Source: Mytilus trossulus (taxonomy: Eukaryota). Taken from it: 64,000 nt of DNA. Below are positions 13,959 to 48,100 of the stretch, piece after piece. The notes beneath the pieces are model-generated. The model had not been told where the DNA came from. It searched no databases and was given only the letters and a program-made list of their open reading frames with translations. The position numbers and the translations under genes are program-made. Each line of letters opens with the position of its first letter. Position 1 is the stretch's first letter. The stretch covers positions 69,378,001 to 69,442,000 of the forward strand of contig NC_086382.1 in assembly GCF_036588685.1 (NCBI RefSeq), read 5' to 3'.

Positions 13959-14159
13959 ATTTGTTATATATATACCTTAGGAACGGTAGTAAAACAGCTG
14001 ATCAAAACTGTATAACGGTATTTACATCCCTGTCTGTAAAGTACCTTTAAACCGTATCGATAATCAAAAATCTAATTTTAACTTTACCATTGACGATGAA
14101 GAAAAGTGATTTTTAGAAACAATGCATCGAAAAAGTAATTTGATATTTTAGACTACGTG

Positions 14160-14275
14160 TATATCATTTGGAAATTTTCAGTTCCGTGTGAGTTGATCCA
14201 TAAATATACATATATATACTTAAATCTATCTACCTGTTCTAGATATTTAAATAATTGACCTTGCTCGACGTTAAA
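14160..14275 (-). promoter_or_regulatory. Upstream block conserved between the two FEM1-like paralogs; kB-like GGAAATTTTC
   Basis: atcatttggaaattttcagttccgtgt...tatctacctgttctagatatt...tgaccttgc is nearly identical at 21428-21530. Confidence 0.5.
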
Positions 14276-14825
14276 TATGTCAAATAAACTAAGATAAAAT
14301 TAGGTTATTAAAGTTTGAAATAAAGGAAAAAGTAGTATGCAGCTATTCGAAACTCAACAAAAAAAAAAATCAGGGTTACAAACTAAAACTGAGTGATAAG
14401 AGGAGAACAACGACACAAAAGAAACACAACATAAAAATGAAACACACTGAGAAACGTTACAACATTTATACTTAAATAATTTTTTTAATCTAAATCAGTA
14501 TATATTTCATCAACCGAGCGATCATAGCCAAATTTCAGAAAAGACTTTGTCACCCCTTGGTGGCAATGTTTGTTTATATATAAAATATTAAATTTTGATG
14601 AAAATAGATGATAAAAAATCGATTTGGTCGGCATGTTTTCAAAATGTTTGCTCCAAAACTTGTTACTATTATTCTGATAGAATACTAAACATGCAGATGG
14701 TGGTCAGTGCACAATATATACTTTAATCATGATTCAATATCTCTCGAACTTGTATTATAAAAATGCATCAGACAGTCACAGATAAAGATTAATTTTTATT
14801 TTTAATAAAGGATTCATTATGGGAA

Positions 14826-14962
14826 AAATAAACTCATCATAGATACCAGGATCAAATTTTGTGTTTACGCCAGACTTGCGTTTCGTCTACAAAAGACTTA
14901 TCAGTTACGCTCGCATCCAAAATAGTTCAAAAGGCAAAATAATGTACAAAGTTGAAGAGCAT
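14826..14962 (-). mobile_element. Degenerate retrozyme-like fragment (variant family) with mutated hammerhead core
   Basis: Minus strand gagcgtaa-CTGATAA-gtc ttttgta gac-GAAAC-gcaa-GTC-tggcgt. Confidence 0.6.
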
Positions 14963-17585: not shown

Positions 17586-20500
17586 TTAAACCTTTTCAGA
17601 AGGCAGGTCAGAAAATTTAATGCTTTTTATCAGTGGATCATATCCATCGTCGCTACGGATAAAAGTATTTGCTCCACAGACCAACAGTATATCAACCACA
17701 TAAACTGAGGGAAATTTCATCAGAGAAACATCTCCTACTTTAGAAATATCGGGATCGACTGCTAGGTGTAATAATGTCTGATTACTTTTTCCCCTGGGAT
17801 CCAGTTGAATCAAGTACGCAACTTGTTCTATAAAGTCTACACGCTCAACCACGCTACCACCAATAAACTGGAAAAGTCGTATTAAATGTAGTGTTAACTG
17901 CATTAGGCACTGCAAATTTCCTTGTTCAGTAATGCTAAATGGGCGTTTGGTGAGAGCAATATTAACGCCTTCAATTTGACGAACAATCAACTTGAAAGCA
18001 TCCAAAACATCAGTCATTTGCACCTGAAATTATAAACAGGCAAATCAATTTCAAAATTGAAAAAAATCTAAAAATAAATAGTATTACCCTTTTTAAATGA
18101 ATTTTCTTGTTTGTTTTGTTGTTATTGCGTTGGATTATTTTCTTGATTAGGAACCAGTGTGAGCACTCACAAACATATTTAATTGAACCGACTCGCACGT
18201 TTTGCTTGGTTATTTTCTATCATTGTGTTTTTCTACTTATTATCTAAGGTCTTAATAATTTTTTCGTTTGTTTTCTCATTTGGTTCTGTCGCATCTGAAA
18301 TTTCACAACCCTTAACGAAAGCCAGAATATACCAAAGGGCATTCCAAACTCATTTGTGTAAAAAACACAAAAGTTAGCAACAAATTAAAAACGTCTAATA
18401 GTTATCAAAGGTACCAGGATTATTATTTAGTAGGCCAGACGCGCGTTTGTTCTACATAAGACTCATCAGTGACGCTCATATTAAAAAAAGTTATAAAGCC
18501 AAACAAGTTAAAAGTTGAAGAGCATTGAGGATCCAAAATTCCAAAAACATGTGCTAATACACCTAAGGTAATCAATTCCTGGGATAAGCAAATCCTTAGT
18601 TGTTCAAAAAATCACAGTTTAGTAAACTTGAAATTTATGAAAAATGACCACATATTGGATATGTATGTCAACCCCGAAGTGCTGACTACTGGGCTGGTGA
18701 TACCCTTGGAGACGAAACGACCACCAGCAGTGGCATCGACCCAGTGATGTAAATAGTTATCGAAGGAACCAGAATTATAATTTATTACACCAGACTCGCG
18801 TTTCGTCTACATAAGACTCATCAATGACGCTCATATAAAAAAAAATTATAAAGCCAAACAAATTAAAAGTTGAAGAGTATTGAGGATCCAAAATTCCAAA
18901 AGGTTGTGCCAAATACGGCTAAGGTAATCTATTCCTGGGATAAGAAAATTCTTAGTTTTTTTTAAATTTAAAAAGACAAATAACAATTCACAAAACAAAA
19001 CATATAAAACTAGAGACTGACGAATACAAGCCCAATCAAACCATTGTAGATTCTCAAGTAGATCTTGACTATTATTTAAGTGCCAAGGTTTGATATTATT
19101 GGGCTTTTTGATTTTTCCATTTCATTTGAGACTTTCCGTTTTGAATTTTCTTCCGAGTTCAGTAGTTGAGTGATTTTACTTTTTGGTTATCAGTCTCATT
19201 CGGTAGAGCATTTTCAAGGAAAAGAGAATATGATTGTTGTTTACAATTGGAACGTTTCTGGCTTCATCTGTGAAACAGATATTCCTTTATGGTCACACAA
19301 TCGATGACGGGTCCGTTAAATTCTCGATGGGGTGACAATATTACTTGGAAATTTTGGTTGAAAACTTTCTTGTAAAAAGTAACCTTCAATCGAGGAAACC
19401 ATGATAGTAAATTCACTGGAAAAGTGAATGAAGTATGAAATTCATACTCCATTGCGGGCCAATTCCATCCAAATTATGCAGCTGAAATCTGTCTTGTGAC
19501 GTTAATTTTTTATTTCAACCGACCCTCCTTGTCGATTTTATTATTTAATTTGGATACCAATAAACCAGGTTTAACCCACCTGTGTTTCCTAAAATGACCT
19601 GCATCAAGTCAGAAATATGGCAATTGTTATCAAATAGACCGTTTCTATGTATGATGACATTTGTTTTGTTACAGTTCAGTGTTTCTGTTGTTCCGTTGTT
19701 TTCCTCTTATAGTTGAATGGTTTTTGTTTCCTATCTATCTTTGTGTTCGCTTAATCGATTGGTGACTATTTAACAGTCACATACTGTTTCATTTGTTTTA
19801 TAGCTAAACATATGACATGGGTTTTTTTCATTGTTGATAGCCGGGAGCAAAATAAATATTAAGGAAAACATCTAAACATTTTAGTGGTGACATATCACTG
19901 CATTTAAGGTTCTTTTTTTTCAAATAACTTCACACAGAAGTTATATTTGTATTAGTCTGGATTTTTAAAACCGTTGTAAATAAATTACCTGTTCTTTTGT
20001 TTTCTTGTTAATCCATTGTGTTTCTAATTTACAAATGATATTTACTAAACTTATCGCGCTTTGGGTAGTGTCACCATTTAAAGGATCGTCTTGTTTTAAT
20101 CTTAGCGTGTAAGCGTACTTCCATAGTTCAACACATCGCTGATAACAGCCGTTATCGCCATACAGAGCACCGCGGTTAAAGATATTTCTGATTGTTACTG
20201 GATGACTTTCACCATAAATCCTGGAATATTTCAGTAATGCTTGCATGTAAAGATCATTTGGTTCAGTTAGATCACGTAAAGATTCTACTGACGTTATTTC
20301 AACTGCATACTGAAAGTAAGATACAGGTGTCACCTTTCTTCCAACATTGGTCATAGTTTGAGTCACTTCATCACGCAGCTTTAATGATGTTTCCCACATT
20401 AAAACACACCGTGTGACGTCATCGTCTACTAAAAAGCAACCTAATAAATCAAACGCAGCGCATTTTTCTTCGAGTGGGAATTCATAAGTATCTAGAAAGT

Positions 20501-21227
20501 ATTCTATAACCAACGAACTGCCTCTAAGAGCAGCGATTGTCAGGGGTGTTTCTTCATAGTTTGTTTTGGCGGTCATCGATCCTCCATTCCGACATAACAG
20601 CTTCACGGTTTCTAATTTATGAGAGTGTGCAGCGTAATGTAAGGCCGTATATCCATCCAAACTTGATGCGTTAACACTTGCTCCTTTTGAAATAAGATAC
20701 GCACATAGTTCCGTGCTAGCTACGGCTGCCATTAAACATGAATATCCTTTTTCTGAAGCTTTCCTGATGTTAGCACCATGTTCGACGAGAAATTCGACTA
20801 TAGGGATATTTTGCAATATACACGCTGATATTAATGGCGTCGAATCCGAATTGGTAGGTCCATTCATGTCTGCACCATGTTCAGTCAGAAGTTTTATTAT
20901 AGCAAGTCCATTATCAAGACCAGTAGCACACCATAAAGGTGGAGCTTCAATATCGTTTTCATAAGTTCGGATTTTAAAAAACCCTTTTTGTTCAACATCA
21001 GGGTCACATTCGTCCAACAAATATTTTATAATATCTGCTTTACCCTTTAAACATGCATAAAACAATGCAGGCCTTCTATCGATCTTGAAAGTCACTATTG
21101 ATTTCCGCTGACTTATTGTCAACATACATAATGTACTGATGATTTTTTGGGGTTTATTTTCATCGATACATGTATGTATAATCCTGGCAATCTTTTCAAT
21201 TTCAGAATTACTCAGTTCAGCTGACAT
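17586..21227 (-). CDS. fem-1: FEM1-like ankyrin/TPR protein, copy B (~558 aa, 2 exons identified)
   Basis: Exon1 21227-19989 (413 codons, CAG|gtaatt), exon2 18023-17586 (tttcag|GTG), phase 0. Ankyrin repeats and the same FEM1 motifs as copy A. A further 3' exon after AAG|gt is possible but was not found. Confidence 0.88.
18398..18960 (-). mobile_element. Retrozyme-like tandem repeat (355-nt unit, ~1.6 copies) with two hammerhead motifs, in the FEM1-B intron
   Basis: GUC cleavage triplets end at 18793 and 18438 (-). Cores are TTGATGA..GAAAC and CTGATGA..CAAAC, each deviating from consensus. Same family as 22500-22942. Confidence 0.85.
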
Positions 21228-21427
21228 ATTTAATATATATACATAGATTCCTTAGAAACGGTAGTTAAAACAGCTGATCAACACTTAGCGATATATACGT
21301 CCATATTTGTAAAATAACTTTAAACGTTTTTGAATCATAATCCAAAAATATAATATCAACATTTGAAATGATGAAAAGTGTTTCTGAAATCATGCGTCGA
21401 ACACATAATATAGGATATAAGACAAAA

Positions 21428-21530
21428 TATCATTTGGAAATTTTCAGTTCCGTGTCAGGTGATCTATATTAGTTTTTAAATTTATCTACCTGTTCTAGAT
21501 ATTAAAATAAGTGACCTTGCCCGACGTTAT
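21428..21530 (-). promoter_or_regulatory. Upstream block of FEM1-like copy B; kB-like GGAAATTTTC at 21436-21445
   Basis: Conserved with 14160-14275. Confidence 0.5.
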
Positions 21531-21872
21531 ATATTGTAAAAGTAATTATAGTTTATCAAAGTTAAAACATTACTATCTTGAATGTATTTGTGATAGACTT
21601 CAATAATAGAACGATAATCGACCAAATATTATGTAAGATTGTATCAATCCCTTCATGACATTGGAATGTTTGATCATGCTAAAACTTCACAATAAACAAT
21701 GTAAGCAGATACAATAAGACCAAATTGAACCTAACGTTTTATTAGAAGAACGCAAAGAAACGCGTTACTACTATTCTAATCGGATAATTAACATACATTT
21801 GGTACTCAAGGTACAACATATAGTTTTCCCAATGCTATACAAATTTATACTTTGCGTTGAAACTAATTGAAC

Positions 21873-22907: not shown

Positions 22908-23800
22908 ACTAAATTATAATCCTGGTACTTTTGATAACTATTTGCAACAACTGAGGAACTCCTTGGTTTTTGTTTCATTCATTCAGAAATATAAAAGTGT
23001 ACAACTTTAATATGATCATATGTGCTTACTTTGTAGAAGACGATAACAACCGATTCCATCAATGATAAAACCGGTGCAGCTATACCATCAGTGTGATAAC
23101 AAAATTTTGGAAATAATGACATGACGATTTGTTATTGCGGATCGAGTAGTAGAGATAATTAAAAAAAAATCAAACCGGTAAATGACTGGGTAACATTCAC
23201 TTTATCTAAACACCCACGATTAGTGGACCATTCGTCTTCTGTTTCACTGTTAAAATACATGCATACGTGTTGATAAGATCATCACCAGATAGAAAGGACC
23301 ACCTGCCTCCCTATCAATAGTAAGTTTACACTGTGTTGATAAGCCAAGTATCTCTATGAAGAAAAACACTAAGGTCTGTACAGCGTGGTAAGTGTCACAA
23401 TTTGCTCTTTATTTCCTTTAATTCATAGTTCAATGTTTTTATAAATAATATTTTAGATGGAATTGTATAAATTGCCAAATATTTCTTATCTTTATTGTTT
23501 CTACGGGTTAATCACTATATTTATATTGCACAGCCAAGTCAGACTCTTTCTAATGTTATAAGATTCTGTTCCGTGTTTATTAAAGTTTACATATCTAATC
23601 AAGTTGTACATATTGCTAATTATTACATTTTTTATACAATTATATTCACATGTATAGTTTATAAAATGTGCCTACTTAAATATGTTCGTTTTTTTAAATA
23701 TAGTTCATCAAATTTCAAAACATTATTTCTATTTGATTATCTATGTATAAATGATTTATTAGCAAAACTTTTGATCATATTTTAGACGTTAGCAGTATCG

Positions 23801-26072
23801 ATGACTGCGATATTATTCTTTGTGACAGTAATTGTCATATTAGCAGTATGTCAGTCTCAGAACTCCGATTTTGTACCACAGACAGTTGACTTTGATAACA
23901 ACTCAATACAAACAGTCACCAAACCTACAGATGAATCAATTATTTCATTTGGAGGGCTGATATCAAAAGAAAAACTCCAGAAACCACCTGAAGTAACTGT
24001 TACAACACCAAACGAAACTGTTTGTCCGGTTACTAAGCTAGAAACAAATGGACCAGTAAATCTATATATCCATGGTGCTTTTGCTACAACAAATAAAGGT
24101 AGGTGTGTTGCCCATTGTTGCTAGATATACACTCAAATGGTCAGGATTTTCCTCTTTCTTTTTCCTTCTACTAGCTGAAACGATAGCGGTCGACCAAACT
24201 TTTTTTAAGTGACATTATTTGATGAATTCGAATAATTTAAGAAAATGCATGGTGTTATTTCGAAATTTATTACAGTACTTCTGATCACAAGCGAGTGTAT
24301 ATTTTTTAACAAACCTCCTAGTTTTTTTTATAATTTAATACAAACATTATTGCAGATTTACTTCCATTTCCACAACAACAATCAAAATGTGACTGTCCTC
24401 CTGGGCCGCAAGGTCTACAAGGAATCCCAGGACCGGACGGTAAGACTGGTCAACAAGGTCAAAAAGGAGACCGAGGACTACAAGGCTCTGTAGGTCCAGC
24501 TGGAATACCTGGACCTCCAGGGAAAGTGATAGTTAATACAACACACACCATTAGTCATGAGCACCCCAGTGTGTTTACTGCTTTCTCAGCTGTGATGACT
24601 ATGACACAGTATGGACCATTCGGTCAGGACAGGGTTAGTTGTGGTGTAATACATATATAAGTAATACTGTTATTTTCTTTCGAATGCAACATGTAATCTC
24701 CAAACTGGTATCATTGTAAAAAATAAGACGAGACAAAATACTGACAATACATGTTTATCCGAGAACCATTGCTATTGCTGTTTAATTAAACTTTTGCGTA
24801 TAGATATATTGATAGATACATCTTAAGGAAATCCGTTTTTATCATTTATATACCGACGATCAAAGGAATGCAACACAAATACGTTACTGTATTTTCGAGC
24901 CTATGACACTGTGTCACCAACTCGAGACATAGCGACCCTACATTCATTCGTCGACGGTGTAGAAGGTTAGGGTATTTTCATTTCTCTATATTTTTAAACT
25001 AATTAAGGACCTATGACTTGAACAGCAGTATACAACTCTTGCATTTAACAGTTTTTAAAAGAATTAAACCTTATCAAAACCATTGAAGTCCAAACAGTTT
25101 TTAAGACGATCATTGTGTGTTCCTTATAATGATAATATTTCAACATCTTTTTTTTCAGATAGTAGTTTTTGATCAAGTACTGGCCAATTATGGTAAATCT
25201 TACCGCCAAAGTGTTGGTGTATTTGTAACCCCCTATAATGGACTCTACCAATTCCATATGCATATACACACCAGGAAGTCATTCATAGCTGAGGTCACTT
25301 TACGTGTAAGTTCCTACTGATTATTATTTACAGCAACCGTCAAACAAATAATCTTTGACCATAAGTCTTCCAATTGTGACGAGTGATGGAGTCCATTTAT
25401 TGAATTTGGTACCGTTTCTTGTAAATCGATTCGGGTTTTTTGACAGTTTATTGGGACTTATAATATATTGTAATATCATTTTATCATTTCGTTTACAACA
25501 GAAATACTTTATAAAAATAGTTTGGATCAATACATTTTAAAAATCTTTTGTTTTTCTATGAAGTGCAACATGTCCATTATTAAAAAAGAAAGGAAACCTG
25601 ATTGGATGAGACAACAACACACAACAAAAAGAACTTACAGAAATATTCAAAGACCTGATATACACACACACACAATATCTCTCAAATCAACCTTGACTTT
25701 ATTAACACAAGATGCACCCATTTCTGGCTCGAATAGTCAATTGTCACTTTGAAACTCCATGACAGGAAATACTACTAGACCGTTTATTTCACGCAAATTG
25801 ATTTGTAGGTCAAACGAAAAATGAACACCCAATCAATGCAGGATATTGTCAGAACATGGGCTGATGGAAAAACAGGAAATATAGAATACGAGATGGGTTC
25901 ATCCAACAGCGCCATTGTTTATTTAGAGAAGGGAGACATGGTATATTGTGTATTACCAAAGAATCAAGTGTTGTCTGGGTTACAGTTTACATCATTCTCG
26001 GGATATCTGATGAAAACTGACGAAAAGAATGATATGAACTCAAAAGACAGATTTCAAACATTTCTTCCATAA
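23801..26072 (+). CDS. Secreted collagen + C1q-domain protein (~328 aa)
   Basis: Exons 23801-24098, 24356-24633, 25159-25305, 25809-26072; all GT-AG with consistent phases. Signal peptide [19 protein letters not shown], 14 Gly-X-Y triplets, gC1q motifs [14 protein letters not shown]....[25 protein letters not shown]. Confidence 0.92.
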
Positions 26073-26998: not shown

Positions 26999-27352
26999 TC
27001 ATGTCTGTTTAAACATATCTACTAGTCCGTTAGCTCTTAGATACTTTTTATACTCCAACAACATAATATCGTCATAGCGACGCAACAGGACTGTTCTGCC
27101 ATTTATATTGATCCGACCTCCCGCTATTCTGTCACGTGCTGTTTTACTGTCCAATAGAACAACCCATCGAAATGACAATGCCACAAACTGAAGAGATTTA
27201 ATGTGAAAGTCTCCGAATGACTTTAAATAAGCTCCTAATTGATTATATACATCTTCGTGGGAAGCACGACTTCCACCCAAGTCGAAAGAAATAGCATTTG
27301 GAATTAGCTCCGGTGGTGGGCGTGGTAGTCTTCGTTCTACCTTCTTTGACAT
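26999..27352 (-). CDS. Uncharacterised atypical RRM-like protein, paralog 1 (117 aa; may have an upstream exon)
   Basis: ~59% identical over 95 ungapped aa (hand count) to the ORF at 32043-32405, with mostly conservative changes. Confidence 0.8.
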   Translation of the reverse strand: MSKKVERRLPRPPPELIPNAISFDLGGSRASHEDVYNQLGAYLKSFGDFHIKSLQFVALSFRWVVLLDSKTARDRIAGGRININGRTVLLRRYDDIMLLEYKKYLRANGLVDMFKQT

Positions 27353-27473
27353 TTCGGGATCCCTGTTGCGATAGATCAGTACATATTCATTTCCTCATCT
27401 ATATTAAAAAATAATACTTGTATCTGTTACATACTTGCAGACTATCTATGTTTACAATGTACACACTTTATTT

Positions 27474-27813
27474 AAGAATTGAATGCTTCTTTTTGTAAAT
27501 TTATTGGGGTGTAAAAGCGTTGACCGAAGTACATTTTGTATGAAGCACGGTCAACGCTTTTACAACCCTATAAAGTTACAAAAAGAAGCATTCAATACTT
27601 ATAATTACATTTTTTAGCTATGATCATGAAAACACGAATTTTATAAATTTTGTATTTTATTCACCTGTGCACTGTGCACTTTATCATGGGACCACGTGCT
27701 ATCATGAATGAAAAGTGTTATTGAGTGATGTAATTGCCTACGGAATAACACGTGATGTTCAGTAAACCAATCTAAATAAAGTATTATAATGAAACATACA
27801 TCTAATGTAATTA
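27474..27813. repeat. Foldback repeat: ~55-bp-arm palindrome at 27474-27601 plus flank
   Basis: attgaatgcttctttttgtaa..gtaaaagcgttgaccg / cggtcaacgcttttac..ttacaaaaagaagcattcaat; the flank is bounded by taattacatt / aatgtaatta. Confidence 0.75.
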
Positions 27814-30612
27814 TATAAATATGAAGTGATTTGGTTGTATTATTTTCTGGATTTAAGCATTACATTACATTGCAGTGGTGTTATTACTCGACGGAAAACA
27901 ACATGAAATGGTACAATGGTGGCATCGACCTACCAGCGAATATATATTTAAGTTCTTACAAAATATTTAATCAGAGGTAAAAAGAGAGGAAATAGTATTC
28001 TTATTCGATGCAAGTTGACGTTTTTGGTTTCTGTTGACTTGTTTGTAGTTTAAAGGCTAAGTAAATGTACCACTTTAAGTTTATCATTTGTGTGTTTGGT
28101 TTGTTGTCTCTTAGTTGTATACCCATTATCTTTTAATTCATCAGATAATACGACAAAGAAATAGTTATTGAATAGCTAGTCTTGTTAGATCCAGCAGAAA
28201 TAAATCATGATCGTTCTTTTTTAGTTGTATACAGTTATTATCACGATCTTCACTGTTTATTTGATATAACTTTATTTTTGATTACAATATATATAAAGAA
28301 ATAAACGTTAGCATTAACATTACTTACCAAATTCCCGAATTAAAGAATTTGTCTTTTGTTATTAATAAACAGTTTCCGACGAAAGTATTCACTCAATAGT
28401 AGGTCTTCATGCCATAATCTAGAAAATGCAGAACATTTTCCACTAACAGTTGAATTGTATGGTTTCCGTCTTGAACAAAGGATGCTATTACAGGACAGGA
28501 ATGAGTTGCATAAAACATCGTTGAATTATTCAGATAAGTTTATACACAGGCTTGATTAGAATCGAAATGGTACAATAAGAAGTTCGTCCCAGGAGTGCAA
28601 CTTGTGTTAATAAATCAATGTTATTACATATTTCCATGCTACAAAAAATATTACATTGTTCACTCATTTGATGTCGATTTCTTGAATGTACACACGCGTG
28701 AATATTTCTTATTACTAATGTATTACGTTTAATAAATTTCTATACAATATATCTGGTTTAATATTTATCGAATTAAACCATTAAAACAATTCGAAAAATA
28801 TGTCATCGTAATGGTGATTTTCAAAAGGCAACATTATAAGTCTGTTATGCTGCCATAGTGATAGACATGATAACTGCTTTGTGTTTCTTATCATGCGTCA
28901 GTTCAGAAAGAAGTCGTATACTACTTTGCCTTTGTCCGTGTGTATGTCCAGCGACATATCTTTTTTTTTAAGGAACTGCAAATCAGAATCTTGTAGTTAA
29001 TGTAGACTACATGTGAGCAACACACCGGCGTCTAAACAAGTGAAAACTCTACGATAGATATATCCATTTGGGTCACCAGTGAAGGTGGTACAAGGATGAT
29101 AACATATATTTTATATATGCCTTCGGGTTTATATGATTCTATTTCGACCATTCAAATTATATGGCTTTCCAAATACCGTGTCGATTCCTAACATTACCGA
29201 AGACACATTGGTTGTCGAAATCCGTACTATTTTTGGCACCTTTTGTTTGCGGTATACCATCTTTTCCGCAAGTTTATTTGTTTACTGTCAAATTAATATT
29301 TAAATTCCATTTGGTTACATCTGGTGATCCATTTATTTGGCAATCGCCAATGACAGTCAGCAGGGTTTAAAAACTAAATCACAAAAATACTGAACTCAGA
29401 GGAAAATCTAATCGGAAAGTCCATAATCACATGGCAAAATAAAATGACAAAACGCATCAAAAATGAAGGGACAAGAACTGTCACATTCCTGACTTTGTAC
29501 AGGCATTTTCAAATGTAGAAAATGGTGGACTAAACCTGGTTTTAAAGCGCTAATCCTCTCACTTTGATGACAGTCTCGTCAAATTCCGTTACATTTAGAA
29601 TGATGCGTGGTCTACACAGATTAAATTGTCACTGGAAAGTGCCATAGCGGTTAAATGTAATGTTTATTGTAATGTAATTTTTTTTTTTATTTCAATTCCA
29701 AAATATTTAATCATAGCAGTTGCAAGCTCATCATGATAATCGCATCCATCGTCTATCGACTTTCTGTCTAGCGAATAGATAAACCATGGTTTTATAGTTA
29801 GCTAAACCTCTAACTTGTATGACAGTCGCAGTAATCTTATTTTTTTTTGTCGCATTCCTGATCATCATCACTATAAATATATATCAAAAGTTTACTACAT
29901 GGCATCAAGCTTTTCCAGGTAACAAGTTTAGGTGTAATATAGAAGTATGATTCCTTTTCTTTCTGATGGTAGTTCTGAAAGTGTATCCGTTTTGTACTTC
30001 TTGAATATTTGAGTTATATGTAGCAATAAAAACGAAATTGTATGATAAAATAAAATCTTCTGAATGGTATATTTGTATATCTATGATATCTAGCGTGTCT
30101 TGTGTTTAGGAGATGTTCCAGAACAGATTTTGACATTTTTTAAGAAGTGCTATACGATTTCGGAAAATATTTTTTTCACGAACTTTTATTGATGAACTGA
30201 GTGAAAGGGTAAAATCATCACGGTTCTCTTAATGTTGTTCTATTTTCCACATTTCTTTATCCTTTATCGGTGTGTGCAAAATGTTTCTCTATAATAGTGA
30301 AAAATTGCCGAACTGTTCTCGGCAAATAATTGGTCGAAAATGAATTATGACGTCAAATTCTCTTGGTTTCTTCTGAATTTTACTATTGTAACGCCAGGAA
30401 AAATAAAAGGGCGACCATGTCTGATGGCGTCACATATAAAGAACATATATATACGTTACGCAAATCTTTGAAAAGGGAGAATAAAAAACATCAGAGAAAC
30501 AGGCAAGCCTCGAGCTTTTTAATATTAAAATCAAACTGTCTCGAGTGGATAATTATAGTAACACACTTGTTGCAGTGATGAAATCTAAATTTTCATTTTC
30601 AAAAAAGAGCGA

Positions 30613-30718
30613 AGGTCGGTGGTTTTCTCCGGGCACTCCGGCTTCCTCCAAAATAAACTTCGCCACGAAATAGCCCAAAAGTGGCGTTAAAACACTAACA
30701 ATCAATCATTTAATCAAT
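30613..30718 (+). mobile_element. SINE 3' fragment (V-domain-like) with (AATC)n tail
   Basis: ggttttctccgggcactccggcttcctcc ... ggcgttaaaacac..aatcaatc. Confidence 0.55.
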
Positions 30719-31347
30719 CGATAAAAAAACAGCGAGTTAAAATGGATCACTTCTATAGTTGAAGCGTATTTGAAAAATACTTAGTCAGTTAATTTATATA
30801 AATGTTTAGTCTTTTGACATCTTCCACTGCAGACTTTGTCTAATTTGCATTCGCCTCTTTAATTCGATAACATTTAAAAGTACAAAAGATAATACATCTT
30901 CCTATATCTATCTGATATTCAACTTCAAAAGCAGTCGGTCAATAAACTTTGAATTACGCTCCCCGAATATAATGGGTCCTATCTAGTCCGGCAGGTGAAC
31001 TCATATATACCAAGATATGAACGTTGCTATATACACTGCCCATATCTTACTGGCGATTAACATTATCTTTTGTTTCATTATTACCCAGTCATGCCTCGCT
31101 TAAGGAAAACAATACATCATACATCCCATGACGTTCCATATATTCTTATAGATTAAAATTTGAATAAATATTGTATTTATTAGAAGTATTGATGTGTTAC
31201 ATTGTATTGTTTTGTGTTATGTAACTATGTCTAGCATACTGCAAGTATATGTTTGTGTTCATGTTTGCATAGTCGGTCTCCTGTTGCTCTTTTTAAATGT
31301 GACTGTGGAGATTAATGATACAAGTTTCAGTCGTATTTGTTTGGTTT

Positions 31348-31378
<31 letters not shown>

Positions 31379-32042
31379 TTTGAGTATTTTCCTTCGTATT
31401 TACGACGTAGTTTATTGGGATACTTCATTGGAACTTGGTCAGTGAATACTAAAGAATAAAGAATATCCTTCTGTTTGTTGGATTAATAATTAACAGATGT
31501 CAAAAAAAGTAAAAGCAGTAAAACTGATAGAAAAATTCCTAAATATATGCATAAAGTACTTCTAACATAATGCTCAAGAGTTTCATAAAATCACGAAAAG
31601 TGCTTCCATTTCTAAATATTTTTTTAATCAAAAATGAAAAAGATAACAAGAATCACCTAGAACATACTGGACAGTACCATAAGGTCACCACAACAACCAA
31701 TAACGTTGGACTTCGCAGAAAAAATGAAGGTACGAACAAACAACATCCAGATAGTCTGAAAAGGGTCTGACACAAAATATAAAATGTATCAGATTAACAT
31801 ATAGACTTGTCTTTAGAACATAGTGCGGTCATATAAGGAAATGTTCGTCTAGTAGTACGTCTAGTAGTAGAGAGGTATCCGAAAGTAATACATAGTTAAT
31901 AATTGTGTATGTGCCTGTATAATGTGCTGACAAGTCTCTGTGCGTCTGTGCACCATGGATAAATTAGTAATTTGAGGCACTAAAGTCTGATTAAGTATCT
32001 CGCGCCCATCATATAGTAATAACTACACCAGAAGTGTGACAA

Positions 32043-34120
32043 TTAGTAGCCTTTCACAGTATCAATAAACCCACTTGCTCTCGAAGACTTTTTATATTCC
32101 AGTGCAATAATATCATCGTAACGTCTCAATGTTACTCGGATGCCATTTACGATTATAACGCTACCAGCTAGCACATCACGTGATTTCTGACTATCTAATA
32201 AAATGATCCATCTGAAAGACATTGGAAAGTACTGGAGAGATTTCATGCGACACTCTTTGTTTGAGAATAACAGAAGTTTCAGTTGATGGTACACGTCTTC
32301 ATGTGAGGCATGACTTCCGCCCAGATCAAACATCAAAGCATTTGGAATAGGATCCGGTTGTGATTTTGTTTCACTTATTTTAGCGTACTTTTTAATTTCT
32401 GCCATTACGTCATCAAATATTTCATTAGAATACCTGCAAAATTAAGAATAGCATACAAGGTTCATTTTTTTGTGGAGTTTCTGTAAAATTGTGAATTATT
32501 ATACTGTTATATTTTACAAAGTTTAAATATAGTTCCATGATTCGAAATGTATCCGTACAATTTAAACAAGCGGGACTTAAATAAAAGAAATAAGCCATAT
32601 GATACCATTCACACGCAACTTTTTTTTTAAAATAATACATTGATTTTTCAAAAGGTGTATCTTACAGGTAGTTTGTCCCTGCAAACTATTTTTGTAATGC
32701 TCCCGCAACTAAAAACTTGGGAGCATATTGTTTTAGTATACCCTTGTCCGTTCGTCCGTCCGTAACATTATAGGTAACCGTATATATAGTTATTCAGCAT
32801 AACTCCACCTACAGATTGAATCCTAAGAAGTTTTCACTTTGCTGTCTGTTCGTATACATAATTTTAATAATTATATGGTCAGGGTTTAGATTTTTATAAA
32901 TATTTTCTCTTTCGGGAGGTAGTTGAACTTTGTCAAATATGGTCAAATATTTGGGGGTATTTAAGCGGTCAAATGCTATAGTTAATTTTTAACACTTTGC
33001 ATCTGCGAGGGCATCAATTGTGTCTCGCTGACAAAAGGAAATTTTAAGAAAATCCTATACTGACTTTGTTATAAAACAGTTACTTCAGAGTGGAGTACAG
33101 GGACATCACTTTATCTAGTTAACAGTTGTTCTTGTTTTTAAGATCTTTTAATTTTACATCAGTAATCTAAACGCTGCACCATGAGTTGGTTGGCCAATAT
33201 GGAATGTCCGTTTCACAGATGATAGTGGATATGTTCCTAATCTACAATTCCGTCCCTTTTTGCACGAATGTGACCTGCCGACTTAGAATTGTTACCGGGT
33301 TTGCAACAACATGAGCAACACGACGGGTGTCACATGTGGAGCATGATACATTGTATGCTTACCCTTCTAGAACACTTAAGATTAACCCCAGTTTTTGGTG
33401 GGGTTCGTGTTGCTTAGTTTTTAGTTTTCTATGCTATGTTTTGTGTTCTTTTGTTTGTCTTTTGTGGCCGTGATGTAGTCAGTTCATTTTTGATAAATGA
33501 GGTATCTTTCTCCTCTCTTTGTCACCACTCTGCTCTAGATCACCAATACTAACATAATGATAAATAGACGAACTAAATGTGTATTATTACCTGTGAAATA
33601 ACTTTTTCAGTTCAAACTAATTCAACAAATTTTGCATGGGTGTCTTTAGATCGGAATCAGAAACATTAAACTGGACACATGTAACGGTTAAAGAACATAC
33701 GCCATTGACGAACACAACTATGACGTCATTGACGGATCAAATACATGACGTCATAGCCAAATGGCTTAGATTTTGTAAGCTTTTTTAACACAATAATTTG
33801 AAAAAAAATATCACTTACTTGACTTTTTCTTTCTTTGGTGCACGAGGTGTGTTTGATTTGGAGGAAGATTTATTAAATGTAGAAACAGTGGGCACCGATG
33901 TTTCTGATGATGTGTTCGTAGTTAACTTCACTGGTCCTTTCGTTATAAATGAATTTGATTTCGTCAGCATCTTCGGCTTCACACACTTTAGCCTAGTTTC
34001 ACCTTCTTTTAGGGAAGATTCCAATTTTGTTTTCGTCTTTGCCTTTCGTCGCCATTTACGAGCGAACTTTGTCGGTCGGATTTGTTCTTGGATAACAAGC
34101 ATTGCAATTCTACGAAACAT
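32043..34120 (-). CDS. Atypical RRM-like protein, paralog 2 (~230 aa, 2 exons; basic Ser/Thr/Lys-rich N-terminus)
   Basis: Exon1 34120-33819 (AA|gtaagt) joins exon2 32433-32043 (ttttgcag|G) in frame: ..KKEKVK-YSNEIFDDVMAEIKK.. Confidence 0.8.
33170..33520. repeat. Interspersed repeat fragment
   Basis: The ..gattaaccccagtttttggtggggttcgtgttgct segment recurs inverted at ~37640-37700. Confidence 0.5.
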
Positions 34121-34799
34121 TTTGAGTAAACCTCAGTCTCTTTACAGCGCAGTATATCAGTAAAACACTCCTATTTATACACAAAATGTTACGTTTAAAA
34201 AAGACTTGTTATTTACATAGGTATTCTAAGTAGCTAGTAGAACAAATTATCACTTAAGATTCTAAACAGATAAATCAATTTTTTAGCATAAAGTAAAACC
34301 AATTAAAGAATTTAATTTATATATATGTGGGTTAATAATTTAAATATCCTGTTTTTTATATATATATAAAACTTTTCATGTATGAAAACCACTTGATATG
34401 TCTTTTATGGTATATAGATCAAACGAAAGATAAATCATTTTGATTAAAACACGAAAATGTCATAAAATCGTTAATCGTCTCCGTCTTAAAGTTTTTTGTA
34501 ATCTTTTTAATTGAATGATATAACTTTTTAAAACTATAAATACATTTCTAAAATTTGGAAATAAGGCCAGTTATATCTGATACATAAATTGAATGATTTT
34601 CTTTGTACGCTGGTTTTCATTATGTTTTTATTTGTGTAGACACGGACTAATGTAGTGATCCCATTTAAACAGATTAAAATATACTAAAGCAAAACAGTAT
34701 ATACTTCAGAAACATCCGGCGTTTGTTAGTCATGTGTAGGTGAAAAAAATGTCAAAATAGGTGCAATTTGGGTACCGTCACGTTATTGTTATGCGTTTG

Positions 34800-35228
34800 C
34801 TTTTCTGCATTGGTTAGAGGGATAGGGGGAGGATTGAGATCTCATAAACATGTTTAACCTATAATGGTTTACTTTTTAAATTGTTACTTGGATGGAGAGT
34901 TGTCTCATTGGCACTCACACCACATCTTCCTATATCTATTAACCCCGTCGCATTTTTGCGCCTGTCCTTAGTCAGGAGCCTCTGCATGGCCTTTGTTAGT
35001 CTTGTATTGTTTTTAATTTTAGTTTCTTGTGTACAATTTGGAGTTTAGTATGGGGTTCATTATCACTGAACTAGTATATATATTTGTTTAGGGGCCAGCT
35101 GAAGGACGCCTCCGGGTGCGGGAATTTCTCACTGCAATGAAGACCTGTTGGTGACCTTCTGATGTTGTCTGCTCTATGTTCGGATTGTTGTCTCTTTGAC
35201 ACATTCCCCATTTCCATTCTCAATTATA
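34800..35228. mobile_element. SINE-like interspersed repeat, with an ~80-bp piece of a second family inserted at ~34860-34940
   Basis: Reverse complement of 44643-44942; the inserted piece matches the head of 38719-39120. Confidence 0.7.
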
Positions 35229-35687
35229 ATTGATTTTTTTTGTGCCATGATGTATATTGATAAAATGAAAATTGTGTAATTAAATGAGACAGCAACCCAA
35301 GAACAAATATAACCAAAAGATACTAGCTGTTACCCAGTGGACAACAGTAGAGGTATGTCAAGCTATTTGTTGCTCATTTTATTTGTAGTATGTTATATAT
35401 ATTTGCCTTCAATTACAAGCAAGGGTGTGTTGTCGAGAGCCTGTTTGTGTTTGGACACGCGACGTATAACAATCAGTAACCATGGATACTATATCTGCGT
35501 AAGATACCACTAGGTTATCGTTAACCTTAAATAAATAAGATTTTTTTCGCTCTAAAAGTATTTTATTTTATTCAATTGTGTTTTGAATAAATCACAAAAA
35601 GTATGTCCGATTGTAAGAAATGATGAGTGTGTCACTTTGACAAATTGTACACGACAATAAATGCAATGAATATATTTATTTTATTTT

Positions 35688-38620
35688 TTAATTTACTTTT
35701 ACTGTCTTCATAATTTTGGGTGCAGATTTCGCTTTTTTCATAGAAATCGGTAATTTCAAGTCTCTTTTCTCGCCTCTTATCTTTTCTAAATACAAATACG
35801 TCTGGTGTTCTCTGCTTGTTATCTCATCTAAGGATTTTATGACAATTTGGACATCATCAAGTCTGAATCCAGCACGAACCATGTGATCTGCTTCCAACTT
35901 GCTTGAAACTTCCACCAACCATCTGTTTCTCACAACAGTATCGCCAGCACGTACAGACAATGGGTCAAACTGTAGTTTTGTGATATCACAATTGAATTCG
36001 TTCACCAGCATATCTTTTACCTCTTTGTGAGAATACTTTTCATTTTCTGGTAGACTGAAGCACACCACTAGAGGATGTTTTTCTGGAGGTATTTTGAGTG
36101 TATGTGTAGCCGGGTAGCATCTATCTTCATATTTACTAGTATCCCATTTTTGGGGCAGAGCTGGCGATTCTTCAACATCCATATTGGCACCCGTCGATCT
36201 TATAAAATTGAAATATGATAGTAAAGTACAAGTAGAGCCTAGCACCAAAAAATATTTTAAACAAGAATGTGTCCATAGTACACGGATGCCCACTCCCATT
36301 ATCATTTTCTATGTTCAGTGGACCGTGAAATTGGGATAAAAAATATAATTTGGCATTTAAATTAGAAAGATCATAACCTAAGGAACATGTGTACAAAGTT
36401 TCAAGTTGATTGGACTTCAACTAAATCAAAAGCTACCTTGACTAAAAACTTTAACCTGAAACTTGCACTATCATTTTCTATGTTCAGTGGACCGTGAAAT
36501 TGGGGTCAAAAGTCTAATCTGGCAATTAAATTAAAAAGATCATATCATAAGGAACATGTGTACTAAGTTTGAAGTTGATTGGACTTCAACTTCATCAAAA
36601 ACTACCTTGACCAAAAACTTTAATCTGAACGAACGAACGGACGGACAGACGGAAGGACGGACGGACGCACAGACCAGAAAACATAATGCCCCTTTACTAT
36701 CGTAGGTGGGGCATGAAAACGTGTGTGAAATGTGCGTAGCCGTGGTAATTTTACTTTTATAAATACAGTTAATGTAGAATTTAACTATGTTGTAATATTT
36801 GTTTTCGAAAACTGTTGGTGTAACAATTTCTTTTAAATAGACCAAACAAATTAGAAAGAAAGAAAAATAAACATCACGCTTAGTTTTCATGTGCTCCTAC
36901 ATTTAATGTTTATTTTTTAAGGTATCAAATTCGATTGACTTTGACAACAAAAACCAGATGAAGTTAATTAGCATCCAGCAAATTTGAAACCATGCACCAC
37001 AAAATGAAATGTTTTTAACGATTATTATACGTTATGGATTTGGAATAAAGGTAAAAGTGCAAACAGCAGCCTTAGTTAAGTATATACATAAATTCATTTG
37101 TTCAATAATTTCCATACCATAATCAATATATTCACCAGAAATCGTTTTTATGACATTAATTTGGGGGGATTTCAAATTGTATCCAAATTGTCTACAGTTG
37201 CAATATGTTGACTGAATATATAATTAACTGAAAGTAAAATGTTTCCGAATAATGTTTTCATACCCTTTATCATTTATATTTTTTGTTTCACTGCCTAATA
37301 CAAATATTCATATATTTCTGATAAAAAATATGTTGACTGTCCCGTACAATTATTTATAATTAAATTTCATTTACACTAGATGGTCGCAATGTCCCATCGA
37401 GAATTGATACATTATTTTTTTAATAATAGCCATGCGCTATATTTTTTGGTGATTTGTTTTCCCCAAGAATTTAAAAGTCAATCATATTACAAGCTTTTCA
37501 TCTTCCCGAGTCTCGGCGAGTTTGGAATAAATAATAAATAAAGGTCATTAAAAGAGGGGCTAAAGATATAAGAGGAACTCATAAATCGAAAATAAACTGA
37601 CAAATAATACTACACAAGAAACAACATAGAAAACTAAAAACTGAGCAACACGAACCCTACCAAAAACAAGGGGTGATCTCAGGTGCTCGAGAAGTGTAAG
37701 CAGTGTTGCTCGTGATACAAAGCTATATTTTCCGTCAAGTCATAGTTTGTTTACTGTAAATGATGTATCATAGTGAATATGTGACCTTTTTGTATAATAG
37801 CGCATGGCTGGTGAATATCTAATCATAATACATGTATGACTAACGACTTTTCATAGGTCAAGCTTATAATCGTCACAAGCCTTGACGAGTTTTTGGATTA
37901 AACAAAAGCCATCAAATTATCAGTTTATGGTTTGTCTACTGTATCATAGTGAATATGTTACCTTTTAAGTAGATCTATATCTGGCTCATTAACCTCGCTG
38001 ACCTCACTGACTTCTATATTTGTAGATGTAACGAGAGTTTCACTTTTATCTTCGATCTCTGATGCATTCTTTTTAAACAGGGTGGCTGATGGCTTAGCTC
38101 TAGCTTCTTTTTCTCTGAAAGGATCCCGAAACCCTAACGACCGAATGTTTTCAGGTAGCTTATACTCGGAAGCTGTCTTAACGTCATCTGTAAATGAAAC
38201 CTGTCTTCCGTGCATTCCCACAGCTGCCGACTTTGGTCTATAAAGTTCGCCATTTTCATTCTCACTCCTATGGACTAAACATCCAGTTTTCGGCCTGACT
38301 CTGTCGGCAGTTTCTTTATAGAATTTCCATTGAAAGCTATCTATAAGCGGGTTGTAGGATAAAATTGATTTAAAACCTTTCAACTTTAAAATCTTGCTCA
38401 TCTTTGTACGTATTTCATTTTCGTTGCCGTGCATGTATGCTTCCAAGTATTTAACGTCCTCAGATGCACAAGCTTTGTCAAATAATTCATTGATATCTAC
38501 ATTGTTCACCTCTGCAGGCTTCGTAAAACAAGAAGCGGATCCTGCTCTATAAGAACTCAATGGTATATGGTATTTTGATTCTATATTACGTAAAATCATA
38601 GCCTGGCTTGATGTAGGCAT
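35688..38620 (-). CDS. Atypical RRM-like protein, paralog 3 (~389 aa, 2 exons)
   Basis: Exon1 38620-37962 (AG|gtaac) joins exon2 36198-35688 (ttttataag|A) in frame: ..DLLK-R-STGANMDVEE..; shares F.L...SH.(D/E)V...L..I..LQF..RW.V...S..D..D(D/E)I...E with paralogs 1 and 2. Confidence 0.75.
36259..36718 (-). mobile_element. Non-autonomous Helentron-like (HINE/pearl-type) element
   Basis: Two ~169-bp internal tandem units, (CGGA)n microsatellite, short atgccc/gggcat inverted repeats and terminal hairpin; lies in the paralog 3 intron. Confidence 0.7.
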
Positions 38621-38718
38621 TATACCAAGACCTTACTTACTTATTGAAGCAAACGCCATGACGACAAACAGTGACGTGATATTTGCATAACGACGTTCAG
38701 TTATTGAGTCCATTAAGT

Positions 38719-40149: not shown

Positions 40150-41832
40150 ATGAAACAACCCTATGACAAAAGCGTCAGTAAACATCCACAGATGCCTGAT
40201 ATTATAATACAACAACAGGGTATAGAAAAAACTTCTAAATAATATCAATATCAGCAAAGCAGCTGGGTCTGATCGCATTCATGGAAAAAGTTTAAAAGAG
40301 TGTAAATCACCTCTCACTCTAATCTTATCAATCATATTTCAAACATCATTGAACTCTAGAAAGATCCCAGACGACTGGCGTCACGCAAGTGTATGTCCAG
40401 CATTAAAAAAAGGCGACAAACACGATCCTATAAACTATCGTCCAATATAATTGGCTTGCATCTCAGTGCTGCAAACTATTAGAACATGTTGTAGCTAGTA
40501 GTATAATGAAACATCTGGGGAAATAAAATACTACTAGTATATTACTTACAACATGGTTTCGATCCTCCCACTCCTGTGAAACTCGGCTAATATCATTTAT
40601 TCCAGATCTTGCAAACTCAAATAATGAAAACATTCAAATAGACATCATAATAATGGATTTTGCAAAAGCATTTGATAAAGTTTCACAACACCACCTCATG
40701 TATAAAATTGGCTTCTACGGTATAAATTGCAACGCATATCATTGGATTCAAGATTTCTTAACAAACAGAACACAGACAGTAGTACTTGAAGGTGAAACAT
40801 CAAATACAATGCCTGTAACATCTGGGGTACCCCAAGGCATAGTACTTGGTCCATTAAAAAAAAAGTCTTTATCAACGATTTGGCAGCTAGAATATATTGA
40901 ACATACTAGTATATTAAGATTGTTTGCAGATAGAAGCGATAGGCAGGTTGGATCAACATTCTCAGTGTAACTCAAAAACGCAAACCTTTAGACTTCACTT
41001 ATAAATTACATAATCACTCTCAAATCAGTCCCTTGGATTTATTCGTAGAAACCTATAATTAGCCTCACCAAAAGTTAAAGCGCATGCATATAAAGCTCTT
41101 GTCCGACCAAAATCAAAGTACTGCTCAACAATCTGGGATCCACCTCAAAAACAGCAAATTTCACAAATTAAAAAAGCTCAGAGAAGAGCAGCCCACTTAT
41201 CATGCAACCGCTTCCATAACACCTGTTCAGTTACTGAAATGATGACAGACCTAAATTGGTGCCCATTCGAAATTAGGCGTTTACGATACAGACTTGTTTT
41301 CTTTTACAAAATTATTCATGAAATTGTTGCAGTCCTGGCCTACAAATAACCTTTTGATCCCACTAGACAATAGAACCAGACAAAGCAATCCACTCTCACT
41401 TAGGCAAATACAAACATCTAAAGACAGTGATAAATATTCATTTTATCCACGAAGTTATATAAATTGAAACTATCTGCCACAACAAAAAGTAGCATGCAGT
41501 ACAATAGATGGATTTCAATAGAAGGATCTCAGAATCTGCTTTCATCCCTATATTCTATCACTGACTATTTTGTTATCAAATGTATTATCGGTTTTATCAA
41601 AATTTGTTTATGAAATTTACATACCGGTGACCTTCTGCTGTTGTTTTTTTATTTGGTCGGGTTGTTGTCTCTTTGACACATTCCCCATTGGAACCATTCT
41701 CAATTTTACTTCGATTTTTTTTGGATTTTTTTTCTTGCTAGTGTAAATTATAAATTTTATAGTCGACGCCCGGCGAATAATCCTTAATAATTGAAGGATC
41801 GCTAGAAACTTTTTTTAACAAGAAGAAGAAGG
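40150..41832 (+). mobile_element. Decayed 5'-truncated non-LTR retrotransposon (CR1/L2-group RT)
   Basis: KAAGSD, IPDDWR, KKGDK..NYRPI, QHGFR..SCET, DFAKAFDKV, SGVPQG.VLGP, LFAD, with stops and frameshifts; (GAA)n tail at ~41820. Confidence 0.88.
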
Positions 41833-45100: not shown

Positions 45101-48100
45101 GGCTATCAGGTTTAATCCGAATGTTCCATGCCGCAAACAGTATAGACAGCTGAAAATGAGTCTTGTTTTACCAGAATCGTAATACCTCTTTTACATTTCC
45201 GGCTCAAAACATTGCAAACACGAGTTACTCTTCATTGTTGAATACCTGGATGATGGAAGTGTAAACATCGATGGTGCTTCCATTTCATGAAAACCGTGTC
45301 AAAATCAGATGAAATTTACGCAATTTACAAGAATTAAAAAAAAGTGAACATTTTTTTTTAAAGAATATGGAAGAATATCAATATTGAAGCCAGACTAATA
45401 TAGTTTTTTGGTCAAAAATGCCATTTTATGTAAATAAAACTTAAAACGGACATCGTTCAGTGTAAGGAATGTGTACAGCTTTGACATTAAATTTTTAAAA
45501 CTTTTGAAGTTTTTTTTCGATTTTTCGATCATAAAGTGGAAATTTTGAGAATTTTCACCCACATGTACATGTAAGTACTAGCCCAATGTTTGAATGAAAA
45601 TTTTTCATAAAGAATTTTTGTCCGACTATAATATTTTCTACATACATGTACATTTCAGATGCACCTAAATTCAACAGAAATCCAGTATTACTTCATTGTG
45701 GACACACTTTTTGTGCAGCATGCCTCAACAAGCTAGCCAGAGAAAACAAGACAAGTATTACATGTCCTACCTGTCAGGTATGTACAATTAATTTGTGCTG
45801 TTTTCATTGTTCATGCCATACATCAGTAAAACAAAAGCATCTAAAAAAACGCATTCTGTATCTATTTGTATTTTTTATGCCCCACCCAGCACTTGGTATT
45901 ATGATTTTCATTCTATTCCTTAGTCTGTCTGTCCTGCTTCAGGTTAAAGGTTTTGAACATGTTGAAGAAGGTTTTTCTTGTTTATATTGTATCTATAAAT
46001 TTTCTGTGTTTTGCAGGTTCCGTCTCCTATCAGTGACGATGGAATTAAAAGTCTGTGGCCAGATGTATACACAACAGGCATGATAGTGTGTAACCAAAAG
46101 ATCCTCTTAGATCAGTAAGTCACGTTGACAGGGCAAGATAATATATATGTATATCTAACATGTCTAAATCTGTAAGTCAGATTGGTCATAAGGCCAAGAT
46201 AATATATATATATCTGAATCAGCAAGTCACATTGGTCATAAGGCCAAGATAATATATATATATATATCTAAATCTGTAAGTCACATTGGGCATAAGGCCA
46301 AGATAATATATATATATCTAAATCAGTAAGTCACATTGGGCATAAGGCCAAGATAATATAGATATATCTAAATCAGTAAGTCACATTGGGCATAAGGCCA
46401 ATATAATATAGATATATCTAAATCAGTAAGTCACATTGGTCATAAGGCCAAGATAATATATATATATCTAAATCAGTAAGTCACATTGGTCATAAGGCCA
46501 AGATAATATATATATATATCTAAATCTGTAAGTCACATTGGGCATAAGGCCAAGATAATATATATATATCTAAATCAGTAAGTCACATTGGGCATAAGGC
46601 CAAGATAATATATATATATATCTAAATCAGTAAGTCACATTGGTCATAAGGCCAAGATAATATATATATATCTAAATCAGTAAGTCACATTGGTCATAAG
46701 GCCAAGATAATATATATATATATCTAAATCTGTAAGTCACATTGGGCATAAGGCCAAGATAATATATATATATCTAAATCAGTAAGTCACATTGGGCATA
46801 AGGCCAAGATAATATATATATATCTAAATCAGTAAGTCACATTGGTCATAAGGCCAAGATAATATATATATATACCTAAATCTGTAAGTCACATTGGTCA
46901 TAAGGCCAGGATAATATATATATATATATCTAAATCTGTAAGTCACATTGGGCATAAGGCCAAGATAATATATATATATATCTAAATCAGTAAGTCACAT
47001 TGGGCATAAGGCCAAGATAATATATATATATCTAAATCAGTAAGTCACATTGGTCATAAGGCCAAGATAATATATATATATCTAAATCAGTAAGTCACAT
47101 TGGTCATAAGGTCAAGATAATATATATATATATCTAAATCTGTAAGTCACATTGGGCATAAGGCCAAGATAATATATATATATCTAAATCAGTAAGTCAC
47201 ATTGGGCATAAGGCCAAGATAATATATATATATCTAAATCAGTAAGTCACATTGGGCATAAGGCCAAGATAATATATATATATCTAAATCAGTAAGTCAC
47301 ATTGGTCATAAGGCCAAGATAATATATATATATACCTAAATCTGTAAGTCACATTGGGCATAAGGCCAAGATAATATATATATATCTAAATCAGTAAGTC
47401 ACATTGGGCATAAGGCCAAGATAATATATATATATCTAAATCAGTAAGTCACATTGGTCATAAGGCCAAGATAATATATATATATATCTAAATCTGTAAG
47501 TCACGTTGGTCATAAGGCCAAGATAATATATATATATATATATCTAAATCTGTAAGTCACATTGGGCATAAGGCCAAGATAATATATATATATCTAAATC
47601 AGTAAGTCACATTGGTCATAAGGCCAAGATAATATATATATCTATCTAAATCTGTAAGTCACATTGGTGACATAAGGCCAAGATAATATATATATCTATC
47701 TAAATCTGTAAGTCAGATTGGTCATAAGGCCAAGATAAAATATATATCTATCTAAATCTGTAAGTCACATTGGTCATAAGGCCAAGATAATATATATATC
47801 TAAATCTGCAAGTCACATTGGTCATAAGGCCAAGATAATGTATATATATCTATCTAAATCTGTAAGTCAGATTGGTCAAAAGCAATACAAATAAATATAT
47901 CTATCAAAATCAGTAAGCGTGACAATTTATTAGTGATATTCAAAGAAATCATCCTAAATCAGAAGTCTGATGTTATATAGGTACTGTGAATATTATATAT
48001 ATGTAATGTTATTAAATAACAGACTTTTTACAGTGCAGTAAGATCCTTGTATTTTCACTTTTCTTTTAAATTTTGCCATCAGAATACAGAATAACAAACT

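Follow-up and report, generated by a model that had tools for sequence, protein, structure and literature searches.

A predicted non-canonical RRM-like domain in three Mytilus genes of the DUF4732/C19orf81 family

Gene Structures

A stretch of 64,000 nucleotides from the mussel Mytilus trossulus (NCBI RefSeq assembly GCF_036588685.1, contig NC_086382.1, positions 69,378,001 to 69,442,000 of the forward strand; hereafter the window, with positions counted from its first letter) carries three related genes, paralogues 1, 2 and 3, which in all likelihood belong to the animal DUF4732/C19orf81 family and share a domain predicted to be a non-canonical RNA recognition motif (RRM) (Table 1). In the open reading frame (ORF) listing of the window they appear as minus-strand stop-to-stop frames at 26999-27394, 32043-32441 and 35688-36308, which an earlier note, made from the letters alone, had grouped by a common residue pattern; all five testable pieces of this pattern are indeed found in each of the three frames. 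Those of paralogues 2 and 3 are terminal exons, and each gene has a GT..AG intron. The two-exon model of paralogue 2 stays open for 230 residues across an intron of 1,385 nt and is identical to the Mytilus edulis protein P0005 at 212 of 230 positions, and that of paralogue 3 stays open for 389 residues across 1,763 nt and is identical to M. edulis P0019 at 367 of 389. Both the start and the end of paralogue 1 recur in the 117-residue homologue P0007 (identity 107/117); its model covers the tabulated frame alone, with possible 5' exons lying outside it. Overall, the window proteins are 92-94% identical to M. edulis entries.

Judged from their sequences, the three paralogues are live host genes. 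Homologues of 228 and 382 residues come from contigs no longer than 1,011 and 1,210 nt, respectively, which leave no room for such introns and hence probably represent spliced transcripts in related mussels. Paralogues 1 and 2 differ by 0.31 nonsynonymous (dN) and 1.7 synonymous (dS) substitutions per site over 90 codons, with dS near saturation, and their DNA similarity is confined to 277 bp of the coding core. The core is also kept better than the linker: paralogue 3 and its relative P0020 agree at 88 of 98 core positions and at 46 of 71 linker positions. A tblastn search found no fourth copy within the 64-kb window.

Around the cluster the GC content is ~30-36%, and an Rfam scan of the window gave no match. 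A strong splice-donor-like site on the minus strand (38630-38640), ~20 nt ahead of the ATG of paralogue 3, could yield a short isoform, but M. edulis has not kept the in-frame methionine of paralogue 3 exon 2. The intron of paralogue 3 contains a 169-bp duplication (36300-36629), and a 129-bp inverted repeat (27473-27601) lies just upstream of paralogue 1.

Table 1. Coordinates of the three paralogues and of the neighbouring features within the window
Feature	Position	Strand	Remarks
Paralogue 1 coding sequence	26999-27352	-	117 aa; essentially a bare DUF4732 domain, core ~27032-27313; from the ORF
Paralogue 2 coding exon 1	33819-34120	-	GT donor; basic N-terminal 28-residue motif and K/S/T-rich linker
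Paralogue 2 coding exon 2	32043-32433	-	AG acceptor, phase 2; DUF4732 core ~32088-32357
Paralogue 3 coding exon 1	37962-38620	-	GT donor; arm that is largely disordered and has three short conserved motifs
Paralogue 3 coding exon 2	35688-36198	-	DUF4732 core ~35796-36089 and basic tail
Decayed LINE-type reverse transcriptase remnant	40527-41349	+	Pfam RVT_1 E 3e-9 on 40527-40967; context
RING/B-box (TRIM-type) gene	45660-61600	+	divergent; seems to run past the window end (45660-63800)
RING exon	45660-45780	+	Pfam E 1e-10
Probable first B-box exon	~55077-55217	+	cysteine pattern only, no Pfam match
B-box exon	61337-61600	+	zf-B_box E 2e-12

Family Assignment

To which family do these genes belong? 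The earlier note had left the shared module unassigned; a profile search, a protein-language-model atlas and the relatives instead place it in the Pfam family DUF4732 (PF15876), that is, C19orf81. Paralogue 3 matches PF15876 with 26.3-26.9 bits (E ~1e-5, best 6e-6) against a cut-off of 27, and paralogues 1 and 2, which are too diverged for the current Pfam model, give no direct match at E<=1. In the atlas, where shuffled proteins attain 0.8 in one case out of three, the paralogue 3 core adjoins a DUF4732 cluster (0.93, 186 shared features) and a cluster named 'Chromosome 19 open reading frame 81' (0.90). A profile of 13 sequences (the three window proteins and ten close homologues) was run against 1.84 billion representatives and matched 252 proteins at E<=0.001, the best 150 of which are listed. 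DUF4732 was detected at E<=0.001 in 83 of the 146 profile matches scanned, with 62 passing the 27-bit cut-off, and PF15876 is precomputed on five of the first 14 matches, including proteins closely related to paralogue 3 and clam members of the paralogue 1/2 subfamily. The same profile retrieves four vertebrate-like proteins that score 148-157 bits on DUF4732; these were left out of the motif counts and trees below, giving 155 (later 159) rows for the former. A third word-index search contributed no more than four further proteins.

On these comparisons, the window genes belong to the animal DUF4732/C19orf81 family. Vertebrate C19orf81 (mouse 1700008O03Rik) has the same domain by profile and by language-model features, whereas in the mussel two deep subfamilies contribute at least three paralogues, and long family members carry an N-terminal arm with three motifs. 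In the literature searched we found no paper that names DUF4732, and the papers returned for RRM-like or AlphaFold folds do not contain the name C19orf81; among the papers listed as mentioning C19orf81, the gene never appears in a title or abstract and no function is stated. The assignment to the RRM fold, the division into three subfamilies and the MPTxSQ motif described below may be unpublished; public structure databases may already imply the fold.

Paralogue History

Paralogues 1 and 2 are identical at 50 of 84 ungapped positions (59.5%), the value that the earlier note had given as ~59%, and paralogue 3 is as diverged as it had held, with 27% identity to paralogue 1 across 103 residues (E 4e-5 to 7e-5 in a tblastn search of the window). 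The local score of paralogue 3 against paralogue 1 (79) was matched by none of 1,000 shuffles and that against paralogue 2 (73) by one of 1,000.

Domain trees of 138 rows, and of 45 rows chosen from these, contain three groups. A clade of nine rows unites paralogues 1 and 2, which are nested there with proteins from Mactra, Ruditapes and Dreissena; paralogue 3 is in a second group, and most rows scoring ~40-80 bits on DUF4732 are in the third; the named relatives come from M. edulis, Mactra antiquata, Ruditapes philippinarum and Dreissena polymorpha. An origin by one recent triplication, for which the three window genes and their close relatives were forced together, was rejected by the approximately unbiased (AU) test on the 45 rows chosen from the 138 (p 1e-97, the group having been defined once the first tree had been seen). 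Because the window genes fall into separate tree groups and their joining is rejected, the split between paralogue 3 and paralogues 1/2 is placed by the domain sequences before the split of mussels from the Mactra/Ruditapes/Dreissena clams, which bears out the idea of an old family. Two relatives, P0024 and P0160, have two matched domain stretches each; the others have one.

Predicted Fold and Conserved Residues

The AlphaFold model of paralogue 1 (predicted local distance difference test, pLDDT, 91) has the beta-alpha-beta-beta-alpha-beta order with an additional C-terminal helix that had been proposed from the hydrophobic pattern. Helix 3 is predicted at residues 93-116. Residues 261-360 of the paralogue 3 model reach a pLDDT of 84-98, and the full-length model a predicted template modelling (pTM) score of 0.40, with the N-terminal arm neither resolved nor more than barely probed by the fold searches. 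Nearly all PDB matches listed in these searches are RRM-containing entries, the best being host RRMs, and among the matches with the best coverage of helix 3 are La and LARP7, which both bind RNA. Sequence searches of the PDB with family profiles returned nothing useful (one match at E 1.4, none in the second search), and the viral structure library gave weak RRM-like rows and no match at E<=0.001. The models thus predict one non-canonical RRM that closes with a long C-terminal helix and that, in nearly all proteins, lies at the C-terminus: the domain ends no more than 60 residues from it in 139 of 145 relatives.

Which residues does this domain conserve? We set the RNP register from the model strands, with the RNP consensus taken from PMC5175362, and counted residues in 98 rows. 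RNP2 position 2 is cysteine in 72 rows and aromatic in three, RNP1 position 3 is arginine in 90 and never aromatic, and RNP1 position 5 is aliphatic in 91 and never aromatic; the aromatics of RNP1 and RNP2 are thus missing, as the earlier note had stated. A histidine at the start of helix 1 and a tryptophan on strand 3 are invariant (98/98), strand 2 has Gln or Glu in 82 rows and strand 3 an arginine in 90. Conservation amounts to ~73% for the cysteine, which is replaced by serine or methionine in paralogues 1 and 2, and to 91%, 89% and 89% for Arg, Asp and Glu. With a median of +0.5 the domain core is electrically neutral, and a basic character marks the tails (597 K/R versus 347 D/E).

Strands 2-3 and helix 3 recall the xRRMs of p65 and LARP7 (RRM2), but the xRRM signature RNP3, (F/Y/W)-X-(D/Q/E/N) on strand 2, is present in just two of the 98 rows, its third position alone fitting in 82, and the conserved arginine of the family sits earlier on strand 3. 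The family differs from La and LARP7 (RRM1) also in having no La motif, and the structural scores of these proteins tie with those of U2AF65, TDP-43 and hnRNP A1. A further likeness is to the pseudo-RRM of SRSF1, whose signature on helix 1 is SWQDLKD (PMC5449602): the start of helix 1 is similar, but His replaces Trp in all 98 rows (Trp 0/98), the SRSF1-like full-length motif is found in only seven of them, and the family has neither an RS domain nor the first RRM.

N-terminal Arms

The arm of paralogue 3, whose exon 1 has no Pfam match, aligns with its relatives in three motifs: MPTxSQ (38591-38620), a G-x-x-x-x-L-x-Y...W hairpin (~38327-38377) and an LGFR helix (~38126-38146). MPTxSQ occurs in 24 of 159 rows and starts at residue 1 in 22 of these (shuffled sets 0.01 each); it is present in 22 of the 34 rows of at least 300 residues. 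It is found in the subfamily of paralogue 3 as well as in that of paralogues 1/2, ahead of long variable arms, and is accompanied by an LGFR-type motif in 17 and by the hairpin motif in 11 of its 24 rows. On the tree it is not clustered (21 changes versus 20.7 when shuffled), a count that says little with many rows being partial proteins. Paralogue 2 begins instead with a basic 28-residue motif (34037-34120, minus strand) that is unlike MPTxSQ and as conserved as the domain in three homologues: its identity to P0005, P0006 and P0009 is 28/28, 27/28 and 20/28, against 59/72, 56/72 and 11/72 for the linker.

The strictly N-terminal proline suggests, from sequence position, a receptor for the free N-terminus. 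A GID4-type Pro/N-degron is one candidate for MPTxSQ, and only a lead, tempered by the preference of GID4 for Gly or Ala at position 2 (PMC9180843).

Genomic Neighborhood

A remnant of a long interspersed nuclear element (LINE) lies 1.9 kb upstream of paralogue 3, on the opposite strand and not linked to it; its reverse transcriptase (RT) piece is at 40527-40970, and its second piece (41059-41346) has no Pfam match. Of the surroundings described in the earlier note, the lack of a zinc knuckle in the window genes stands, and the lack of an adjacent RT does not quite hold. Its head-to-head RING/B-box gene is likewise confirmed in part: RING and B-box are there and the gene is divergent, with a probable coiled coil in addition, but 7,040 bp separate the paralogue 3 ATG from the start of the first RING exon found, with the LINE remnant in between. 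The best PDB sequence matches of the RING are RNF4 and TRIM RINGs; we presume that the gene could be RNF17/Qin-like or another TRIM.

An intron of this gene holds an apparently near-intact retrotransposon (55450-60680, plus strand) with three long overlapping ORFs, matches to RT, RNase H, a weak Dam-like domain and tyrosine recombinase, and inverted terminal similarity, which from its architecture we take to be DIRS-type. Its first ORF was considered as a relative of the family and is unrelated (hhalign probability 0.1). A 50-bp satellite (34 copies) and tandem arrays of 161 and 260 bp occupy 46163-47917 and 48423-49571. On the other side of the cluster, a collagen and C1q gene (23786-26072, plus strand) ends 927 bp from the paralogue 1 stop, tail to tail, and a tandem pair of ankyrin-repeat genes with ~82% DNA identity, presumably Fem-1-like, lies at 11502-21534 on the minus strand. 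An assembly gap of 219 N (4198-4416) is far from the cluster.

Discussion

We hold with high confidence that the cluster comprises three expressed Mytilus host genes of the animal DUF4732/C19orf81 family, that paralogues 1 and 2 stem from a younger duplication within one subfamily and that paralogue 3 represents a second subfamily that split off long before, with a single non-canonical RRM as their common domain.

Might these genes nevertheless descend from mobile elements? That the frames are themselves transposable-element pieces or pseudogenes is exceedingly improbable. Mobile-element remnants are present in the region, and one 24-nt A-tract lies 675 nt past the paralogue 2 stop; this reading is largely refuted by the introns, the spliced homologues, a dN far below dS, the conservation of full-length proteins in other species, and a DNA likeness of paralogues 1 and 2 that is restricted to the coding core with no extra copy nearby, so that the earlier claim of host genes rather than elements holds. 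A domesticated non-LTR ORF1 (Tx1/L1/Jockey) as the source of the family, or a direct ancestor shared with the RRMs of ZCCHC3, together with a role in germline transposon control, appears unlikely. ORF1 proteins of type I have an RRM followed by one or more CCHC knuckles, and those of type II a coiled coil, an RRM plus a domain at the C-terminus (CTD) (PMC4120745); ZCCHC3 has three C-terminal C2HC knuckles (PMC10351740, which does not use the term RRM). In contrast, the family domain sits at the C-terminus with a single helix after it, introns interrupt paralogues 2 and 3, and there is no linked ORF2: no RT frame lies downstream of any paralogue, by window ORFs and Pfam. A CCHC knuckle (C-x2-C-x4-H-x4-C) is found in none of the 155 relatives; the 146 proteins scanned contain no RT, endonuclease, transposase or knuckle Pfam family and no L1-type coiled coil with CTD (Transposase 22), and no ORF1- or ZCCHC3-type family is among the 25 listed of the 50 Pfam families for 98 members. 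Neither of these two scans lists a ZCCHC3 RBD model of the kind that Pfam has. The sole hints of such an origin come from the L1 ORF1p structure 2w7a, at rank 22 and tied with host RRMs, and from leads in the atlas, under 0.9, that point to clusters containing DUF4780 and PRE_C2HC, which we take to be ORF1-associated; RRM_1 leads alike at 0.82. L1 ORF1p is not among the matches listed for the paralogue 1 model, an absence that does not exclude it. Host RRMs match best, and the kinship to ORF1p or ZCCHC3 put forward in the earlier note is not borne out. The fullest version of this idea also seems decidedly unlikely: an animal-wide non-canonical RRM family in germline stem cells that would have arisen from an RRM of the LINE ORF1 type before the major animal lineages diverged, and that would act in transposon-control RNA particles through a His version of the pseudo-RRM site, with MPTxSQ setting turnover or docking. 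A transposon origin would come as a surprise and is not favoured by the evidence.

How might the domain act? Tentatively, and at a chance that we put a little below even, we envision a side-binding RNA adaptor in RNA-protein particles. Rather than stacking bases on its beta-sheet, the domain would bind through a lateral site made up of the helix 1 His, a Q-F-x-P at the end of strand 2, the R-W of strand 3 and a Y-D...E-Y on helix 3, which would operate as in pseudo-RRMs and xRRMs and be aided by the basic C-terminal tail. Conceivably, long members use the short motifs of their disordered N-terminal arm to dock partners, and the initial residues of the arm, with Pro in front once Met is removed, may serve as an N-terminal signal. 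Atypical RRMs can indeed bind RNA via helices, loops or the sheet edge (PMC5175362, PMC5449602). The likely setting would be germ cells: C19ORF81 is among the single-cell RNA sequencing markers of human undifferentiated spermatogonia, although its antibody is not among the five that passed validation (PMC13003925), and C19orf81 stands in the antibody table of PMC6274646, where we read it as one of 16 stained State 0 candidates. A cattle fertility quantitative trait locus overlaps a C19orf81 expression locus for two variants, among several genes (PMC11154999), which is a weak pointer. The germline idea of the earlier note thus draws weak support from human expression and none from the RING/B-box neighbour. 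Weighing against the proposed adaptor are the loss of all three stacking aromatics and the neutral core, and the presence of the mouse gene in a bone-density knockout table (PMC7822523) counts against a purely germline role.

The lost aromatics and the neutral core would fit with the same host genes and fold having lost nucleic-acid binding altogether. UHM-type RRMs are protein-docking RRMs, and a similar function here is a real, if somewhat doubtful, possibility, whereby the conserved His, Arg, Trp, Asp and Glu would keep helix 3 and the proline-rich segment of the N-terminus in position or bind a peptide. An aliphatic RNP1 position 5 and a cysteine at RNP2 position 2 would suit a sheet covered by helix 3, and RRMs are known in which an extra helix binds protein instead of RNA (PMC5175362). 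Against pure protein docking, the basic tails, the strand 3 Arg and the strand 2 Gln/Glu resemble RNA-contacting features of xRRMs, and RNA binders are found among the best helix-3-covering matches. Very improbable is a small enzyme, or a metal or ligand site, on a ferredoxin-like fold with His, Cys, Arg, Asp, Glu and Tyr as active site: the histidine is invariant and the other residues counted are well conserved, but no catalytic ferredoxin-like domain leads any fold search, the cysteine is replaced in two of the three window genes, and the conserved residues may be structural.

The cluster itself is an ordinary gene-family duplication. Human C19orf81, however, marks undifferentiated spermatogonia at the RNA level, and the invertebrate members supply a predicted fold and testable residues for this human gene without known function.

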